The position numbers were made by a program, and so were the translations under genes. Shown here one piece after another: positions 10,708 to 27,093 of a DNA stretch of 47,981 nucleotides. The notes under the pieces were generated by a model. That model saw only the letters and a list, made by a program, of their open reading frames with translations. It had not been told where the DNA came from and searched no databases. The stretch is from a virus (taxonomy: Duplodnaviria > Heunggongvirae > Uroviricota > Caudoviricetes), in IMG/VR virus record IMGVR_UViG_3300022468_000772, positions 150,224-198,204 of that record; one strand, given 5' to 3'. The stretch's first letter is position 1; each line of letters begins with the position of its first letter.

Positions 10708-12024
10708 TTAAACCAATTCTAACATAGAACTGTACCGATCTTCCGGCTTTGTTGCCATAATAATCTTTAGGTCTGCATATTTCGCTAAGATGTCTTTTTT
10801 AAGCAATTCAACTTCATCGATAGTGCATGAATACAACGGTATACCAGCAAGGCGTCTTGCGTCAGCATCGTCAGATACATTTGAAACAATCCAGTCTTCC
10901 AGTTCTTTCTTTGACATACCACTTGGCACCAATTCTTTTTTGGTGATTGCCTGAATGAACTGAAGTCGCCAATTCATACGCTTGATGTTATCTTTGGCAG
11001 TCTTAATTTCCCATTCGATCTTATCACCGCATTTCTTAATGCGATATTTTACAAAGTAGTCGATCAGTTCATGCGGCCCCGAGAACTGCACCAGTTTGTG
11101 ATCCGTACCAATCAGGTTCCATTGTTCAGTCACAGGTTTTTGTAACTTGAAATACTTGATAGGGTCTTTGTCGATCAGTTCACGCGCAGACAGAGACACC
11201 TTCACGTGGAAACAGAAACCAGTCTTCGAGCATTCATCACTGAAGCCTTTGATCAATTCCTTTTCTTCCATTTCTGCCAGTATTTGAACGTAATCTGCAC
11301 GATCATAACCGATAGGTAGTTCACTCACTTCATAGGTGTATTTTCCAATGTATTTGACAATACCAGTTGTCGCATACTTGTTGCCTTCGATATGACTTAC
11401 CTCACCACGAAAATCTGGGAATGTGGGTAGGATTGGCTTTGCTTCGTTAAGAAACTTAGCAGGGTCTTTCAGATAGGTTCGAACAGCCTTTGTAACGTCT
11501 TTGATGCTACGGGGAAGCACAGTGTGCTTGTACCCCACGGCGATACCGTCAGACCCGTTTACAAGTGCCCATGGAATGATAGGCAGATAGTGTGCTGGCT
11601 CTGGATCATCAATAGATTTGTTTTGCGGCAGAACTTCTTCATCAGCAAAATACTTTTTGAAAATAGCACTCAGCGATGCGTAGATGTAACGTGGCGATGC
11701 AGACTCTTGCACCAGTCGAGAACCAAACGATCCATGGTGTTCAAACACTGCAGCATTGTTCTTATACGGTGCAGCCATATTGACACATGCAGATGCTGCA
11801 GATGCTTCGCCATGGGCATAGTTTACAGAGCTAAGAGAACCAGAAATTTCAGCAATCTTTACCTTGCCTGTCTTATGGTTCTTTAACATCGAATAGATTA
11901 GTTTTCGACCAACAATCTTCTGTCCATCAATAGCGGATGGTAACGCACGAGACTCCAACACATACATTGCGTATGACTTGAAATCCTTGTCGATAATATC
12001 TTTCAGCGAACGCTTAACAATCAT
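10708..12024 (-). CDS. gp52: DNA topoisomerase II medium subunit (GyrA/ParC-like)
   Basis: SRALPSAIDGQK, YAHGEAS, GSFGSR, SPRYI (catalytic Tyr), LVNGSDGIAVG. Confidence 0.96.
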   Translation of the reverse strand: MIVKRSLKDIIDKDFKSYAMYVLESRALPSAIDGQKIVGRKLIYSMLKNHKTGKVKIAEISGSLSSVNYAHGEASAASACVNMAAPYKNNAAVFEHHGSFGSRLVQESASPRYIYASLSAIFKKYFADEEVLPQNKSIDDPEPAHYLPIIPWALVNGSDGIAVGYKHTVLPRSIKDVTKAVRTYLKDPAKFLNEAKPILPTFPDFRGEVSHIEGNKYATTGIVKYIGKYTYEVSELPIGYDRADYVQILAEMEEKELIKGFSDECSKTGFCFHVKVSLSARELIDKDPIKYFKLQKPVTEQWNLIGTDHKLVQFSGPHELIDYFVKYRIKKCGDKIEWEIKTAKDNIKRMNWRLQFIQAITKKELVPSGMSKKELEDWIVSNVSDDADARRLAGIPLYSCTIDEVELLKKDILAKYADLKIIMATKPEDRYSSMLELV

Positions 12025-13833
12025 TTACTCACCCATCCATTCTTTACGACCATCGGCATCATCACCAAATGCCATTTCTAAAATTCTCGGATCAAACCCT
12101 GTCACACACTCAAGGTATGGATCGTTAACCACCTTCGAGTATACATCTTCAGGCATGGAACCCAGACCTTTGTAGTAGCTCACATCCCATCCAGTTGCAT
12201 CAAACTCTGCATACTCTTCATAGGTGTAAAAGAACTTGTCTGTCTTACCTTTTTTACAGTGGAAGAGTGGTGCCTTCAATCGATAGATACGCTCTTCCTC
12301 GTACAGTTCAGGCCACAATGAAAACAGGTTCAGCAGCAAGCAGAAGATGTGTGATCCATCGGTATCCGAGTCGGTAAACACTACGATCTTACCATAATTA
12401 AGATTCCTTGCAGGTTCACCGATCTTCAAACCGATAACACTCATAAGCTCACGAATCTCTACATTCTTCATGATTTCCAGAGGTCGCAAACCATTGATGT
12501 TCAATACCTTACCCTTGAGTGGATATCCACCGGTAGTTCTGGCATTGCGAACATTGATCAGGCTGGAGATAGCACTTAGACCTTCACATAAAAGTAGCAT
12601 ACGCTTTTCGATGATTGGGTCAGTAGCAGCAATGTGATTGATGACAATTTTCTTCTTACCATCTTTCTCTTTCTTCGCCAGTTCACGCGCCTCTTCTAGC
12701 TCTCGCTTGTAGAGAATAGCCTGAATGATTGGATCAATGATAGCAGGTGTGTCGATCAGCTTTTTGCCGATTTTATCGAAGTCTACATCCTTGAAGAAAG
12801 CAGAAATTTCCGCAGTCGTGTTTGTGATTCGCTCTTTTGATTGACTATCAAATTTGAGAGCAGGAAAGTCTTTGATCCACGAAGCAAACATGATGTTGGC
12901 TTTGATTGCGGCAGGCATCACATCAATCTTGTGCTTTTTCTTGATGAATGCGCGGATCGATTCTGCAACTTTATTCATCACAAAGTCAACATGAGCGCCA
13001 CCTTGTGATACCCGAATACCGTTTGCACATGCCAGTACATACGACTCTGTTTTACCCGCTGGAGCAAAGATAAAGAGGATGTTAGGATACTCGAACGAAA
13101 CCGCATCATTGCTAAAGTTTGCAGCAATCTCACGTGTGCTTTTTGCTCGAATCGGTTTACCGTTGAAGGTGTAAGTGATATCACGATAGGTGATAGCCAG
13201 ATTTACCAATCGATCCATAACCATAGATTCATGATCTGCATCGAATGTCGAAAGACCGAATCGCGCCAAGTCAGGAACAAAGGAAACAGTTGTTCCTTGT
13301 TGGCTGCTTTTCTTTTTGGTGAATTTGATATCACTCATGTTGTCGCGACAGGTAACTTCCATGGTGTTCTTACCATCGGATGTTGTACCAATAAATTCGA
13401 TTGAGAAAATATTGGTCAGTGCTGCACCCATACCGTTTGTTCCGGCACCAACACGTTTCGAGTCATCGAAATTGCTACCAGCACGGAGCGCTGTCCATGC
13501 TAAAACGGGTCTAGGCTTGTTATTTACCAATTCCTGTGGAATACCCCTACCGTTGTCAGAAATCGTCACCTGAGTGCCTTCTAGCGTTTCTGTGACGCTA
13601 ATATCGATCTTGTTGGCATACTTGCCACCAGTTCGGATGAATTCATCGGTGGAGTTATCAATAATTTCTGAAATTATCTTGAGCAGACCGGATGCCACGG
13701 TTTTGGTCTGTACGGTATAGTTGTAAATTCCGGTAACGGGTTCGGGTGTGCAGGAGCCGATGTACACGCCCGGCCGCAGCAACACATGTTCCCTGTCACT
13801 CAGTTCTTTAAATTCTTCTGTCATTGTTGTCAT
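12025..13833 (-). CDS. gp39: DNA topoisomerase II large subunit (gp39+gp60 fused, GyrB/ParE-like)
   Basis: EHVLLRPGVYIGS, EIIDNS, DNGRGIP, GTNGMGA ATPase motifs; TOPRIM EGLSA, DSDTDG, YYKGLGS; start at the TAATG overlap. Confidence 0.96.
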   Translation of the reverse strand: MTTMTEEFKELSDREHVLLRPGVYIGSCTPEPVTGIYNYTVQTKTVASGLLKIISEIIDNSTDEFIRTGGKYANKIDISVTETLEGTQVTISDNGRGIPQELVNNKPRPVLAWTALRAGSNFDDSKRVGAGTNGMGAALTNIFSIEFIGTTSDGKNTMEVTCRDNMSDIKFTKKKSSQQGTTVSFVPDLARFGLSTFDADHESMVMDRLVNLAITYRDITYTFNGKPIRAKSTREIAANFSNDAVSFEYPNILFIFAPAGKTESYVLACANGIRVSQGGAHVDFVMNKVAESIRAFIKKKHKIDVMPAAIKANIMFASWIKDFPALKFDSQSKERITNTTAEISAFFKDVDFDKIGKKLIDTPAIIDPIIQAILYKRELEEARELAKKEKDGKKKIVINHIAATDPIIEKRMLLLCEGLSAISSLINVRNARTTGGYPLKGKVLNINGLRPLEIMKNVEIRELMSVIGLKIGEPARNLNYGKIVVFTDSDTDGSHIFCLLLNLFSLWPELYEEERIYRLKAPLFHCKKGKTDKFFYTYEEYAEFDATGWDVSYYKGLGSMPEDVYSKVVNDPYLECVTGFDPRILEMAFGDDADGRKEWMGE

Positions 13834-23558: not shown

Positions 23559-24610
23559 AGTGTGTTTGAGATTGCTGCAGCCTCTTGCATCAAGGCCATA
23601 ATTTTGTTTTTGATGATAGATTTATCCAACTTGGTGTCAAGCTCTTCAACCACGTTTTCAATGATAGACATCGTGGATACAGCGTTAACTTGCTTGCCCA
23701 CAGCGTTCGACACTGCAGCAACATAGGATGACTCAATAACCTTCACATCATGTGGCGAAGATTCGTTGATTGTAGCAAGAAATTTATCAAACTTTTTCTG
23801 GTCATCCTTTTTCACTACGATGATTTTGACAAAGTGGTCTTTGACGCTATCGAAATCAAACTTCATGCCTTCAACGTAGTCGATTCGTTTGAAGATGGTG
23901 TACGGATTGCGCACAAACTCGTAATCAAGTGTCTCAGTGTCCAAGACCCAGAATCCCTTTGGATCGTCGCAGTCAACCCATGTTAGTTCATAGGGTGTTC
24001 CGGTGTATTGTACGTTGTCTTTCTTGGATTGGGTGTGGTAGTGACCACTGAAGACGGTTTTGTAGATGGAAAACTGTTTGTGATCCATGCCGCTCTCGGC
24101 TTCGTTGCCCGGGCTAAGTGGAAACAGCGCAAACTCAAAGTGACCAACTGCAATCTTCGATTTGGTATTCTTTGCATACGCAAGACATTCTTCCCTATTG
24201 CTCTGGTTAATCCATGGGTAGAAGTCAATATCCAAACCATCAATATTGATGGTTTTCACAGTTGAATCAATAATGTTAGCTTTTGTGTTTTTCAACAGTA
24301 ATCTAACGGAATTGATTTTATTAGTGTTTGTAAACAGGCTGTCATGGTTACCCGATAAGACATGAAGCACGTAACCGTTTTTCGGGTCAAAAACCTTATC
24401 GAAAAAATATTTGTTGGCTCGGTACAAGGTATTGAAATGAACCTCGCGCCGGTAATCAAATAAGTCACCAGTTTGTACGATATGTTCGATACTGTTAGAT
24501 TCAAAGTAGTCAAACATAAAATTGAATGACTTTTCAAAGTAGTCATGAAACTTGTCACTTGAACGGGTTGCTCCAAAATGGGTATCCCCGATTATTGCAA
24601 TTTTACTCAT
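23555..24610 (-). CDS. gp47: recombination endonuclease nuclease subunit (Mre11/SbcD-like)
   Basis: GDTHFG, GDLFD, GNHD, GHFE, SGHYH, GTPYELTWVD. Confidence 0.96.
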   Translation of the reverse strand: MSKIAIIGDTHFGATRSSDKFHDYFEKSFNFMFDYFESNSIEHIVQTGDLFDYRREVHFNTLYRANKYFFDKVFDPKNGYVLHVLSGNHDSLFTNTNKINSVRLLLKNTKANIIDSTVKTINIDGLDIDFYPWINQSNREECLAYAKNTKSKIAVGHFEFALFPLSPGNEAESGMDHKQFSIYKTVFSGHYHTQSKKDNVQYTGTPYELTWVDCDDPKGFWVLDTETLDYEFVRNPYTIFKRIDYVEGMKFDFDSVKDHFVKIIVVKKDDQKKFDKFLATINESSPHDVKVIESSYVAAVSNAVGKQVNAVSTMSIIENVVEELDTKLDKSIIKNKIMALMQEAAAISNTL

Positions 24611-25203
24611 AGGTCAAAAATATCCGTTTCAATATTCTTTTTAGGTACTTTAAGAACCTGTGCTTTTGCAACTGGATATGCAGTTTTATTACGATGTACC
24701 AGTGAGGGGTGAATCTTCTTTTTCTTTTCTTCGTAGTAGTCAGTCAGTGCATCATTTTCCTTGAGAAATTCTACAAATGCATTGCTAGTATCAGAATCAT
24801 CAATAGAATTAGCATGCTGCACAAATTCATGAGACATTTTTTCTCGAACTATTTTAGCCTTCACAGATGTTTGATGATTTTCTTTTTTGATTCTTTCAAC
24901 AGCACTATTCCATGCAATCTGACTAAAAAATGCAAATGGGTTGTCTGATTTTTCTTGATCAAAATTATGTGCCTTTGTAATGCACTTGACGATGGCATCC
25001 GAAATCATTTCATCACGATAGGTATAACCCACAAAATTGTAGTTGTTCATGAGATTGGTTGATATACGGAAAATAGCAGAGCCAATATCATGAGGTACAG
25101 ATGGTAACTCTGTACCTTTTTCTTTGGCATCCTTATATGCAGCAGAATATGCGGTGCATGCTACAAGTAGTTCTTTATTGGATACATAATGGTTTTTTGA
25201 CAT
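24607..25203 (-). CDS. gp55: late transcription sigma factor
   Basis: HYVSNKELL, NFVGYTYRDEMISDAI, NFDQEKSDNPFAFFSQIAWNS. Confidence 0.95.
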   Translation of the reverse strand: MSKNHYVSNKELLVACTAYSAAYKDAKEKGTELPSVPHDIGSAIFRISTNLMNNYNFVGYTYRDEMISDAIVKCITKAHNFDQEKSDNPFAFFSQIAWNSAVERIKKENHQTSVKAKIVREKMSHEFVQHANSIDDSDTSNAFVEFLKENDALTDYYEEKKKKIHPSLVHRNKTAYPVAKAQVLKVPKKNIETDIFDL

Positions 25204-25242
25204 ATGGATTGTATAGCCCTTTAATAGTTAGTTTCAATCACT

Positions 25243-25270
25243 ATTCTATAACTGATCACTGATTTGTCAA
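25243..25270 (-). promoter_or_regulatory. sigma70-type promoter for the gp55-gp47-gp46 operon
   Basis: TTGACA-N16-TAGAAT about 40 bp upstream of gp55. Confidence 0.75.
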
Positions 25271-25291
25271 CAAATCCATATATTCAGGCAA

Positions 25292-25756
25292 GCCGCAACC
25301 CGTAGGATGATAAAACAAAAGAATCAAAAACAACGGGGTTGCGGTTCTATGTGTTATCTATCCTACTTCGAAGAGATATTATTCTCTAGCTCTTGCTACT
25401 TTCCGTGTCTCCATAAATAGAGTCGTACTGATAACGCATTCCTATTTTCCTTATCGACCGAGTTTTCATCCCATATGTTGTGATGGGCACAGACTCCGTA
25501 AATCTATTCGTGTTCGATAGATTCAACTGTGTTGGGTATCATCCTTTTCAGGTGGTCGTTTACCAATCCATATGGAAGACATGGATTGCCTGCGGGTTGC
25601 GAGTTTACAGGGAATGAAGATTCTATATTCGGATGGGTGCTAACAATGCACCGTTTTTTAACGCCAACGTTTAGTCTTCGAACTTAAACGGCGACCCCTA
25701 CTTTTGACACGTGCCTAGGATTGGGCAAATTTGCTGATAAGTGTCACCAATCAGCC
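25292..25756 (-). ncRNA. candidate large structured non-coding RNA (unassigned family)
   Basis: No ORF; upstream TTGACA-N16-TAATAT; at least 9 hairpins including a GAAA tetraloop and nested long-range pairings. Confidence 0.5.
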
Positions 25757-25761
25757 ATGAA

Positions 25762-25789
25762 ATATTAGATCGTATTTGAAGAGTGTCAA
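25762..25789 (-). promoter_or_regulatory. sigma70-type promoter firing into the non-coding gap
   Basis: TTGACA (overlapping the gp4 stop)-N16-TAATAT; predicted +1 near 25755-25756, where the first hairpin begins. Confidence 0.6.
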
Positions 25790-26250
25790 GTTTTAGATGG
25801 TCGCTTTTTCAGACCAAGCTCGTATTCGGTCATGATGATAAAATCAATCCCTCTTTCTTTGCACCAAGCTCTTGCAGCTTTCCATTTTGACATATTTTTT
25901 ACGTATGTCAACACTGCTTCCTGATAGCGCTTTGTGTTTGGATTTTTGGGTGGAACCGGCATCTGTGTTTCGATGAATGGTTTGATTTCCACCAGAAAAG
26001 TCTTAATCTCACCAGTGCGTGTTTTCACCTTGATCAATGCATCTGGAAAGTACCGGTGCATACGCTGATCAGTCTCGCAAAGATATGGTATCACCAATTC
26101 TTCGTTTGCATAGTGCAGCACACTTGGGTTGTTGTCGCATTCATGAAAGAATCTTCGCTCCCAATTGCTTCTCAGCGTAATGTTGTTTGGGTCACCGGCA
26201 TATTTTTCGGGGTTCTTTGGTACCCACTTTTTAACAACTGGTCTAGCCAT
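25786..26250 (-). CDS. gp4: head completion protein (TnsA-like nuclease fold)
   Basis: PKNPEKYAGD, RSNWERRF, EELVIPY, HRYFPD, LVEIKP, KWKAA. Confidence 0.93.
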   Translation of the reverse strand: MARPVVKKWVPKNPEKYAGDPNNITLRSNWERRFFHECDNNPSVLHYANEELVIPYLCETDQRMHRYFPDALIKVKTRTGEIKTFLVEIKPFIETQMPVPPKNPNTKRYQEAVLTYVKNMSKWKAARAWCKERGIDFIIMTEYELGLKKRPSKT

Positions 26251-26428
26251 TATTTCTTAGTTCCTGCTCTCGTTTAAGCGATGATGCAATCATGTCCAAT
26301 TCAAGGGACATTTCCCATGGCATCATGTTCTCTATGCTCTCTGTACTGTAACTGTAGCGATACCTGAGTAGGTGGAGTGCTTTGTACAACTCCCCTAATG
26401 AAATCCTACTCAGGCTTAGAGGAAAAAA
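26243..26428 (-). CDS. gp51: gp51-like baseplate hub/tail assembly chaperone segment; no canonical start, in the -1 frame of gp26 (not in ORF track)
   Basis: FFPLSLSRISLGELYKALHLLRYRYSYSTESIENMMPWEMSLELDMIASSLKREQELRNNG*; YS..EIENM.PWE is the gp51-like signature. Confidence 0.75.
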   Translation of the reverse strand, partial: FFPLSLSRISLGELYKALHLLRYRYSYSTESIENMMPWEMSLELDMIASSLKREQELRNNG

Positions 26429-27093
26429 TTGGTAAATCCTGTGGTGGTTCTATTGTGATCCAGACCACATTTCTTGCACTTGTATTTGCTGTGCAATTGA
26501 ACCATAGGCATCTTTTTAAGGAATGCACTTACCAACTTCTGTTGCCGTGGCGTCATGCTCTCGACAAACTCAATTTTTTCTTCAAGTGACCAATCAAGTG
26601 TCTCTTCATCTGTGTAAACTGCAGTGATGCAATTAGCCACAACTTCAAACGATGCTTCTGCATTTGTCTTGATTAGTTTTGCAAAATCCAGAATGGATGG
26701 ATGCTCAAGTTTTACAGTGTACTGAGTACCTTCGATCTTGAACAAAGTATCCTTTGGTGGCTCTGGTAAAACAGTCGCTTCTGTCACATCAATTTCAAAT
26801 TCTGTTTTCGCGTCTTTGTCGCACGTGCATCCACCAATCATGTCAATCAATTCACCAATTGATTTAGAACGAATCTGGAGATAGATGTACTCCACATCAT
26901 AGTAAGGGATTTTCTTTGGGTCTAGATCGGTGCATGCTGCAATCACGTTGTTGATTGCGATAGCCACGGTATCGATATCAGACTCTTGCAGGGCCAACAA
27001 CAGTGCTTTTTCTTCCTTTACCGTAAAAGGTCTGAAAGTAATTTTCTTACCTGTTGATGGTTGCGTTGTCACATATGTTGGTTGAATGATCAT
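26416..27093 (-). CDS. gp26: baseplate hub assembly protein
   Basis: PSTGKKITFRPFTVKEEKALL, DVEYIYLQIRSKSIGE, C-terminal CKKCG...GFTNFF. Confidence 0.9.
   Translation of the reverse strand: MIIQPTYVTTQPSTGKKITFRPFTVKEEKALLLALQESDIDTVAIAINNVIAACTDLDPKKIPYYDVEYIYLQIRSKSIGELIDMIGGCTCDKDAKTEFEIDVTEATVLPEPPKDTLFKIEGTQYTVKLEHPSILDFAKLIKTNAEASFEVVANCITAVYTDEETLDWSLEEKIEFVESMTPRQQKLVSAFLKKMPMVQLHSKYKCKKCGLDHNRTTTGFTNFFL

Follow-up and report, generated by a model that had tools for sequence, protein, structure and literature searches.

A gap without long reading frames between gp4 and gp55

The stretch of DNA analyzed here (47,981 nt, hereafter the window) makes up the last 48 kb of an IMG/VR record (198,204 bp) that belongs to a T4-like phage (genome G000), and the subject of this study is a gap between the head-completion gene gp4 and the late sigma gene gp55, in which we propose that a large structured non-coding RNA (ncRNA) is encoded. 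All genes around the gap lie on the minus strand: a baseplate-hub gene (26416-27093) is followed by gp4 (25786-26250), by the gap itself (25204-25785, 582 bp) and by gp55 (24607-25203), and then by gp47 and gp46. The gap contains no credible open reading frame (ORF), and none of at least 90 aa. An earlier interpretation made from the letters alone (the sequence-only reading) had called it the only large ORF-free gap, of about 580 bp; the size is right and no such gap in the window is larger, but six others of 272-446 bp exist.

A sigma-70-type promoter enters the gap from gp4 on the minus strand (25762-25789), with the -35 hexamer TTGACA at 25784-25789, a 16-nt spacer and the -10 hexamer TAATAT at 25762-25767, and matches the consensus at 10 of 12 positions. 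It overlaps the gp4 stop as had been claimed, the gp4 TGA lying within the -35 hexamer. The predicted RNA downstream of it is about 461 nt long on the minus strand (25295-25755), counted from the predicted start to the last conserved pairing. The extent proposed earlier, 25370-25789, cuts off the 3' part, since the RNA reaches about 25295. An exact TTGACA with a -10 hexamer at 16-19 nt was found 13-37 nt 5' of the P1 loop in 8 of 9 homologues examined, the second copy in the same phage genome has TTGACA-16-AATAAT, and all promoters found point in the direction of the RNA. In contig L184 the promoter stands further upstream (TTGCAT-16-TATACT), and four tandem CAAAUACUU repeats occur immediately 5' of P1 (L184:2230-2275).

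Copy 1 of the RNA, the one in the window, lies about 2 kb from a switch of gene strand between minus and plus (about 177-178 kb of G000, roughly 27-28 kb of the window). The genome as a whole consists of two large blocks of opposite gene orientation, and its cumulative GC skew peaks near 109 kb and passes through a local minimum between about 174 and 180 kb, near copy 1.

Homologues in T4-like phages and in Ramlibacter

Homologues were searched for through gp55 relatives on contigs with a syntenic gap, with a core covariance model (R1) and by two further motif scans, and 14 distinct sequences were obtained in all. Nine are situated in the gp53/gp4/gp2/gp55 region (the window, L001, L183, L184, L187, L192, L068, L191 and L229), three are divergent from uvsY (copy 2 of the window's own phage, L228 and L237), and two distinct sequences come from the bacterial genus Ramlibacter, in which 3 of the 101 genomes searched carry a copy. 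Besides the window's own phage, about ten related uncultured T4-like phages thus carry a copy. L196, the fifteenth sequence, shares 98% identity with the window copy and lacks 33 nt of it. Copy 2 lies at 43.5-44.1 kb of the same phage genome, is 58% identical to copy 1 and has the same genomic orientation; it is flanked by a late SGNH-like gene and by uvsY-uvsW, both of them on the opposite strand.

The sites differ among the phages. The RNA is found between gp4 and gp55, between gp2 and gp55 (L068), between gp2 and a reversed DUF7487 gene that precedes gp55 (L191), and between a gp53-like baseplate gene and gp4 (L229). In the copies next to uvsY, the RNA points away from that gene and is convergent with a late gene or with a GIY-YIG gene. 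The proposed location at a boundary of early and late modules was borne out, but the RNA is not tied to gp55: other copies precede gp4, follow gp2, diverge from uvsY or belong to islands of Ramlibacter. The GIY-YIG-type endonuclease genes adjoining the uvsY-type copies are free-standing (L228:9447-9944 and L237:4708-5772). A reverse-oriented DUF7487 gene directly upstream of gp55 occurs in two related lineages (L191:732-2069 and L194:1862-2812).

The distribution is sporadic. The element is absent from gp55 relatives at 51-67% identity that have a tight gp2-gp55 junction, and BLAST and model searches of G001, a complete relative of 178 kb that has terminal repeats, gave a single copy. No match was obtained when the gap was compared with 50,697 phage records by blastn in distant mode, and exact-motif scans of IMG/VR returned only members already in hand and chance matches. 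A metagenome scan gave 8 matches, all by chance and inside bacterial coding genes, seven of them in orthologues of one gene. When model R1 was run on a further 150 genomes from the family to which Ramlibacter belongs and on 150 from its order, no member came up, and it detected no homologue in RaK2 (NC_019526) or T5 (NC_005859), where the best E was 0.14; a search of the T4 genome likewise revealed no homologue. A tree of the core, which is built on a short alignment and has modest support, places the Ramlibacter sequences within the phage ones and does not unite the uvsY-type copies in a single clade.

The Ramlibacter copies score 67-70 bits with the model and are situated in an island of 52-60% G+C, with DNA of up to 64-72% G+C flanking one end of each examined stretch. 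Two of the genomes have islands that are 99.9% identical, the third has one with 76-84% identity to these (L241, L242 and L244), and the island carries a split tyrosine integrase (L241:11577-11894 and 11915-12676, where L241 is G004:C8:45001-65000 of Ramlibacter rhizophilus) together with a few phage-family proteins. One island ORF weakly matches the homing-endonuclease family phrog_655 (E 5e-5). The island proteins have no credible homologue in the phage genome, a single match of 25-28 aa being judged spurious, and none matched the known defence families. No obvious promoter was seen at the Ramlibacter copies; a conserved terminator-like hairpin stands immediately 5' of P1 in them.

Covariation supports a structured RNA read from the minus strand

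The core structure was tested on 27 pairs in 14 model-aligned sequences against 500 shuffles. In this alignment, which leans towards structure because it was fitted to a covariance model, 96.1% of the cells pair, compared with 72.3 +/- 1.4% in the shuffles, and 0 of 500 shuffles reached 96.1%. When the partners were slid by 1-3 columns, the paired fraction fell to 27-41%. As many as 22 of the 27 pairs change on both sides among the 14 sequences, and the same test with ten sequences gave 98.1% paired. For the full model of 93 pairs, a plain MAFFT alignment of the full length, with some distant rows visibly misaligned, gave 90.2% paired cells against 67.6% when shuffled, and 69 of the pairs show compensatory changes. 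RNAalifold predicted 81 pairs from nine sequences, 58 of them with compensatory changes. An unbiased scan over all column pairs recovered the conserved helices including four pseudoknots, which taken together are 97.3% paired with compensatory changes at 20 of 22 pairs. Covariation in homologous regions, which had been put forward as the check to make, is therefore strong.

The folding energy said less. Single-sequence folding was modestly better than in shuffled controls (z = -2.7, 1 of 100 shuffles), but the opposite strand did equally well (z = -2.8), so that folding energy alone is indecisive. The minus strand is assigned as the sense strand because of four features: the GAAA/GUAA loop on P8 and the C(UUCG)G hairpins found in the 3' domain of most relatives occur in the minus orientation only; the closing U-G of pseudoknot PK2 is invariant; G-U pairs outnumber A-C pairs by 81:33 overall and by 16:2 in the pseudoknots; and the promoters point this way.

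Coding potential was not seen. The homologues share no conserved ORF, their longest ORFs (36-121 aa) differing in frame, strand and place, and indels among them are not multiples of three. The small ORFs of the gap had no PHROG match. One small-ORF reading, with AAGGAG-N8-AUG at 25438-25447, was rejected, as its frame extends over 17 codons in the window, over 7 in L001 and over 1 in L183, and the distant homologues lack it. A role as a CsrA sponge was set aside too, since the 8 GGA motifs counted by hand in 470 nt are close to the chance expectation of about 7.

Known RNA families were then excluded as follows. The window has no match at the gathering score in Rfam 15, the families including GOLLD, ROOL, OLE, raiA, HEARO, RNase P, tmRNA, introns and small ribozymes; at E up to 10, the region 25100-25900 gave two chance-level matches only (20.7 and 16.8 bits), and the Ramlibacter and L068-type copies gave nothing relevant. 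ARAGORN found no tRNA or tmRNA gene in the window. A group I or group II intron was rejected on the grounds that the RNA is intergenic everywhere, is preceded by a promoter of its own and, at the uvsY sites, runs opposite to the genes on both sides. For RNase P, AAACGACC and AAAACUCGGUCGAUAA superficially resemble CR-I and CR-V with P4, but spacing, flanks and Rfam disagree. The view that this is not a tRNA, tmRNA, RNase P or intron thus stands. By the membership tests the family, which is absent from Rfam, is rated as a new RNA class. Taken together, 14 homologues, strong covariation, a conserved promoter, strand-fixing loops and G-U pairs and the lack of an Rfam, tRNA or tmRNA match agree with the original proposal, in which a start near 25755 on the minus strand gives an ornate phage ncRNA of about 465 nt that had not been described before.

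Anatomy of the RNA

All features below are on the minus strand, and the 5' strand of each helix is given first. In the 5' double-pseudoknot domain (25694-25755), P1, PK1, P2 and PK2 interlock. P1 pairs GCUGAU (25750-25755) with AUCAGC (25733-25738), and its loop GACAC (25741-25745) pairs with GUGUC (25706-25710) to form PK1, which is kept in 13 of 14 sequences in 7 variants. P2 (25724-25727 with 25712-25715) offers its loop AUCCU (25717-25721) to GGGGU (25694-25698) in PK2, which pairs in 12 of 14. P3 (25685-25693 with 25662-25673), a conserved A-run UUAAAAAAC (25653-25661) and the P4 hairpin (25648-25652 with 25636-25640) follow. Read on the plus strand, the P4 hairpin and the A-run (25636-25661) look like a textbook intrinsic terminator (GGTGC..GCACC, then T6), and at the uvsY-type sites such a plus-sense terminator would halt read-through from the convergent late gene.

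P5 pairs CCUG (25608-25611) with CAGG (25589-25592), and its loop GCAACCCG (25593-25600) is the 5' strand of PK3. The P6 hairpin (25579-25588 with 25564-25573) has compensatory changes at 9 of 10 pairs in the first nine sequences, and its loop UUCC (25574-25577) is the 5' strand of PK4, whose 3' strand GGAA (25439-25442) comes after P7; all 14 sequences can form PK4, which occurs in 9 variants. A long-range pairing considered before, of CAUUCC ahead of P5 with GGAAUG, was replaced by this UUCC/GGAA pairing after the unbiased scan.

The central multibranch domain (25451-25558) is closed by P7, in which CGACC (25554-25558) pairs with GGUCG (25455-25459); helices 1-3 are 97-99% paired here, with 12 of 15 pairs compensatory. 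The long-range pairing of P7 had been proposed from the sequence, and compensatory changes in the homologues uphold it. P7 holds P8 (CCU-GAAA-AGG, 25543-25552), P9 (CACAG/CUGUG, within the central domain) with P10 (25501-25523), and P11 (25470-25487). Box X, AGGAUGAU (25538-25545), overlaps P8, a near-invariant GGAGUCUG (25490-25497) is conserved between P10 and P11, and the near-invariant AAAACUCGGUCGAUAA ends at 25451.

Beyond the PK4 strand, P12 pairs GUUAU (25431-25435) with GUAGC (25395-25399) around P13 (25404-25425), and P14 (25372-25387), preceded by a conserved AAGAGC, is followed by a conserved UCGAAG (25366-25371). The 3' closing region (25295-25366) opens with box Y (GUAGGAU, 25360-25366) and continues with a spacer that is variable and rich in pyrimidines. 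Strand Z (AUCAUCCUAC, 25302-25311) comes next, and the 3' strand of PK3 (CGGGUUGC, 25295-25302) is the very 3' end of the RNA. PK3 has 8 bp, all Watson-Crick in 12 of 13 sequences and in 8 variants, while L191 has one terminal mismatch. The variable region surrounded by P15, the pairing of Y with Z, is about 50-270 nt long.

Variation between lineages was seen in the 3' domain. The spacer of the window copy contains a lineage-specific segment, CCGCAACCCCG (25334-25344), that repeats the sequence of the P5 loop; as this segment can pair with the 3' strand of PK3, it could compete with that pseudoknot. Elsewhere it is present only in the near-identical L196. L184 has an insertion of about 200 nt in the variable 3' domain (L184:2700-2900). 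In L196 (a JGI contig, L196:1218-1388), the 33-nt deletion takes out P13 and the 3' strand of P12, and CAGU abuts AAGAGC; this may be either a natural variant with a dispensable P12/P13 arm or an assembly artefact.

Thirteen helices had been listed by the sequence-only reading, and 11 of them (P1, P2, P3, P4, P5, P6, P7, P8, P10, P11 and P14) show compensatory changes. The remaining two are not conserved: CAAC/GUUG gave way to P9, and UAGC/GCUA to P12. That reading had missed the four covarying pseudoknots, the pairing of the 3' end onto the P5 loop and the two mutually exclusive helices described next.

Two boxes compete for one strand

Strand Z is complementary to box Y, giving P15 with 7 bp, and, shifted by three bases, also to box X, giving an alternative helix (ALT) of 8 bp. 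Over 13 sequences, the Ramlibacter copies among them, 97% of X:Z is paired; for Y:Z the figure is 95% in the nine alignable rows. The two helices are mutually exclusive, and the first three bases of X also build P8. Each has compensatory changes in the part that belongs to it only (GAU/AUC, GAA/UUC and GGU/ACC for X:Z; GU/AC and GC/GC for Y:Z). Positions 1-5 of X and 3-7 of Y are identical in 4 of 11 sequences and alike at 3-4 of 5 letters in the others, and homologues with unlike X and Y keep both pairings with Z through G-U. X and Y appear to stay alike within one RNA because they have a common partner. Given the fact that both X:Z and Y:Z covary, the RNA probably switches back and forth between two states, or adopts one of them transiently while folding. 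The pattern would be produced either by a two-state switch, by a folding intermediate or by a coaxial split in which X and Y each take half of Z.

A proposed stand-alone gene for an early, trans-acting RNA

We propose that the gap harbors a stand-alone gene for an ncRNA of about 461 nt, which is made early, acts in trans through its fold and uses X, Y and Z as a switch, and we give this explanation as a whole a probability of about 60%. Host RNA polymerase would read the RNA early in infection from the near-consensus sigma-70 promoter, and the transcript is expected to be abundant. It would fold into a compact, knotted body composed of the 5' double pseudoknot, a central junction of P5-P11 and a 3' domain of P12-P15; PK4 would tie the P6 loop to the junction after P7 and PK3 would tie the 3' tail to the P5 loop, and both pairings are shown by covariation. 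With Z on Y, the 3' domain would be closed and the GAAA-capped P8 intact; with Z on X, P8 would be opened. Early in infection the RNA may then act in trans as a binding partner or decoy, as an RNA-only assembly or as a catalyst. Action in trans through the fold is suggested because the module of promoter and RNA is placed in several intergenic sites, is antisense to its neighbours at uvsY and has island copies without a shared protein.

Several points weigh against this explanation. No minus-strand terminator was found after the RNA, either between it and the gp55 promoter or at copy 2, and because of this the RNA could, at the copy-1 loci, be the 5' portion of a longer transcript reaching gp55. 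The competition of X and Y for Z might settle as a static coaxial stack, which would be no switch. The transcript, its ends and its stability are what we infer from the DNA, and trans action through the fold is deduced from anatomy and distribution. Finally, the locations of the RNA mimic T4 origins.

This last point leads to the main rival explanation, although one that we consider improbable: the RNA would be an origin-associated pre-primer, an early transcript that folds as ColE1 RNA II does, hybridizes to the template with its 3' part and primes the leading strand, so that the two copies of the phage, near 43.8 kb and 175.7 kb of G000, would be two origins. Copy 2, L228 and L237 abut uvsY-uvsW on its upstream side, the site of oriF in T4; copy 1 is in the baseplate/head-completion cluster, the region of T4 oriE, close to the strand switch and the local GC-skew minimum; and the RNA has no terminator. 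T4 oriE uses an early promoter, and active T4 origins are near transcriptional divergence and composition shifts (PMC3016281). In T4 R-loop origins, however, a promoter and an A+T-rich unwinding element suffice, and R-loop formation is independent of specific sequence (PMC3016281), whereas the present RNA has about 90 conserved bp and four pseudoknots that would keep it, its 3' end included, folded on itself. The RNA at the uvsY sites points away from uvsY, opposite to the oriF transcript, the complete relative G001 has a single copy, T4 has no homologue, and the GC skew is confounded by gene orientation. Pyrimidine-rich RNA is expected to form a weak RNA-DNA hybrid, and it is such a stretch that precedes strand Z. 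The DNA downstream of the RNA is A+T-rich, but it is the promoter and leader of gp55.

Another explanation would make the RNA a cis-acting boundary element, that is, a structured leader or processing site for gp55 or an insulator against late/early read-through. The gp55 gene has its own sigma-70-type promoter on the minus strand (TTGACA-16-TAGAAT, 25243-25270), which starts 25 nt past the end of the RNA, is thus its neighbour and not a part of it, matches 11 of 12 consensus positions, is stronger than the RNA promoter and is kept in L001. Most of the phages do have the RNA just upstream of gp55-gp47-gp46, in the same direction and with no intervening terminator, the RNA is always located between the late cluster and early/middle genes, the P4 hairpin and A-run read as a terminator on the other strand, and alternative pairings are what a riboswitch-like leader should have. 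But the uvsY-site RNA is antisense to both neighbours, with no gene downstream in its own direction, in L229 the RNA precedes gp4, in L191 a reversed gene stands between RNA and gp55, the Ramlibacter copies have no gp55, and the gp55 relatives at 51-67% identity manage without the RNA. A dedicated leader is disfavoured because the module occurs at varied sites and at some of them faces away from uvsY; on this sequence evidence we take it that the RNA is not a leader of gp55, and a cis role of any of these kinds seems distinctly improbable.

Since the RNA occupies several insertion sites, a selfish, mobile, ribozyme-like element was also considered, either a relic or relative of an intron or a self-cleaving RNA, perhaps spread by nearby homing endonucleases. 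The nesting of Ramlibacter copies among phage copies in the core tree, the GIY-YIG genes beside the L228 and L237 copies, the weak phrog_655 match in the island, and a size and number of pseudoknots within the range of ribozymes would agree with it. Yet the Rfam models of group I and group II introns and of small ribozymes were silent even at E up to 10, the RNA interrupts no gene and has its own promoter, no target duplication or repeats were seen, and at 58% identity the pair of copies within a single genome is old, so that we regard this explanation as highly improbable. That the gap has no RNA function, being a DNA-level element or a set of chance hairpins, might be read from the modest z-score that is equal on both strands, but it is already contradicted by covariation (69 of 93 pairs compensatory), by strand-specific G-U pairs and tetraloops and by conserved promoters, and has next to no chance of being right.

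Going further than the stand-alone, trans-acting gene proposed above, it is conceivable, though unlikely, that the family is a new class of large RNA with a conserved two-state fold on a body of four pseudoknots, a ribozyme, RNA-only assembly or specific decoy that is traded between lytic T4-like phages and bacterial islands as a module of promoter and RNA. To our knowledge, few RNAs of more than 400 nt have conserved tertiary pairing of such density, and the majority of those with an assigned function are ribozymes or the cores of RNA-protein machines. The family is small but unusually well defined, with four covarying pseudoknots, a 3' end that is locked onto the interior of the molecule and two exclusive covarying helices, which make it a concrete candidate for a switch. 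Because the phage and island copies share no protein, a function carried by the RNA alone is suggested, and RNA genes may be among the cargo that moves between phages and their hosts. One of the carriers, Ramlibacter rhizophilus CCTCC AB2015357, with its copy on the minus strand of NZ_SMLL01000005.1 at about 54.7-55.3 kb, is cultured, while the phages are uncultured. Should the origin explanation prove true, the family would provide the first description of a folded pre-primer RNA from T4-like phages.

Comparison with known RNAs

RF01718 (Polynucleobacter-1) is a motif of Burkholderiales and fresh water (PMC2864571). The present family has a link to Burkholderiales as well, through its bacterial copies in Ramlibacter, but differs in that no RF01718 match was found in G000, G001, G404 or G026, and G004 has one chance-level match elsewhere in the genome (13 bits, E 4.3).

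The transcripts of T4 oriE, oriF and oriG resemble the present RNA in being driven by a promoter and unterminated, in being located at uvsY and in the baseplate/head-completion region, and in their proximity to a switch of transcription strand. They differ in that they are not known to need a fold, and the RNA has no homologue in T4. The RNA II pre-primer of ColE1, an RNA of about 550 nt whose fold matters, is similar to it in size and would be so in having a functional fold. Unlike origin and pre-primer RNAs, the present RNA has no visible antisense regulator or RNase H site, and its 3' end is predicted to be locked in intramolecular helices.

The closest likeness in kind is to GOLLD and ROOL, which, as OLE and raiA, are large 'ornate' ncRNAs of bacteria and phages (Rfam; cryo-EM, PMC12286853). 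The present RNA matches none of the four in sequence or structure. GOLLD and ROOL are found mainly in prophages of Firmicutes, whereas the present RNA belongs to lytic T4-like phages and Burkholderiales, and the formation of oligomers is the only established property of the two. Like them, it is non-coding and sporadic in distribution, it has many covarying helices and pseudoknots, and it appears to be made from a stand-alone gene of several hundred nt that is carried by phages and by phage-derived islands.

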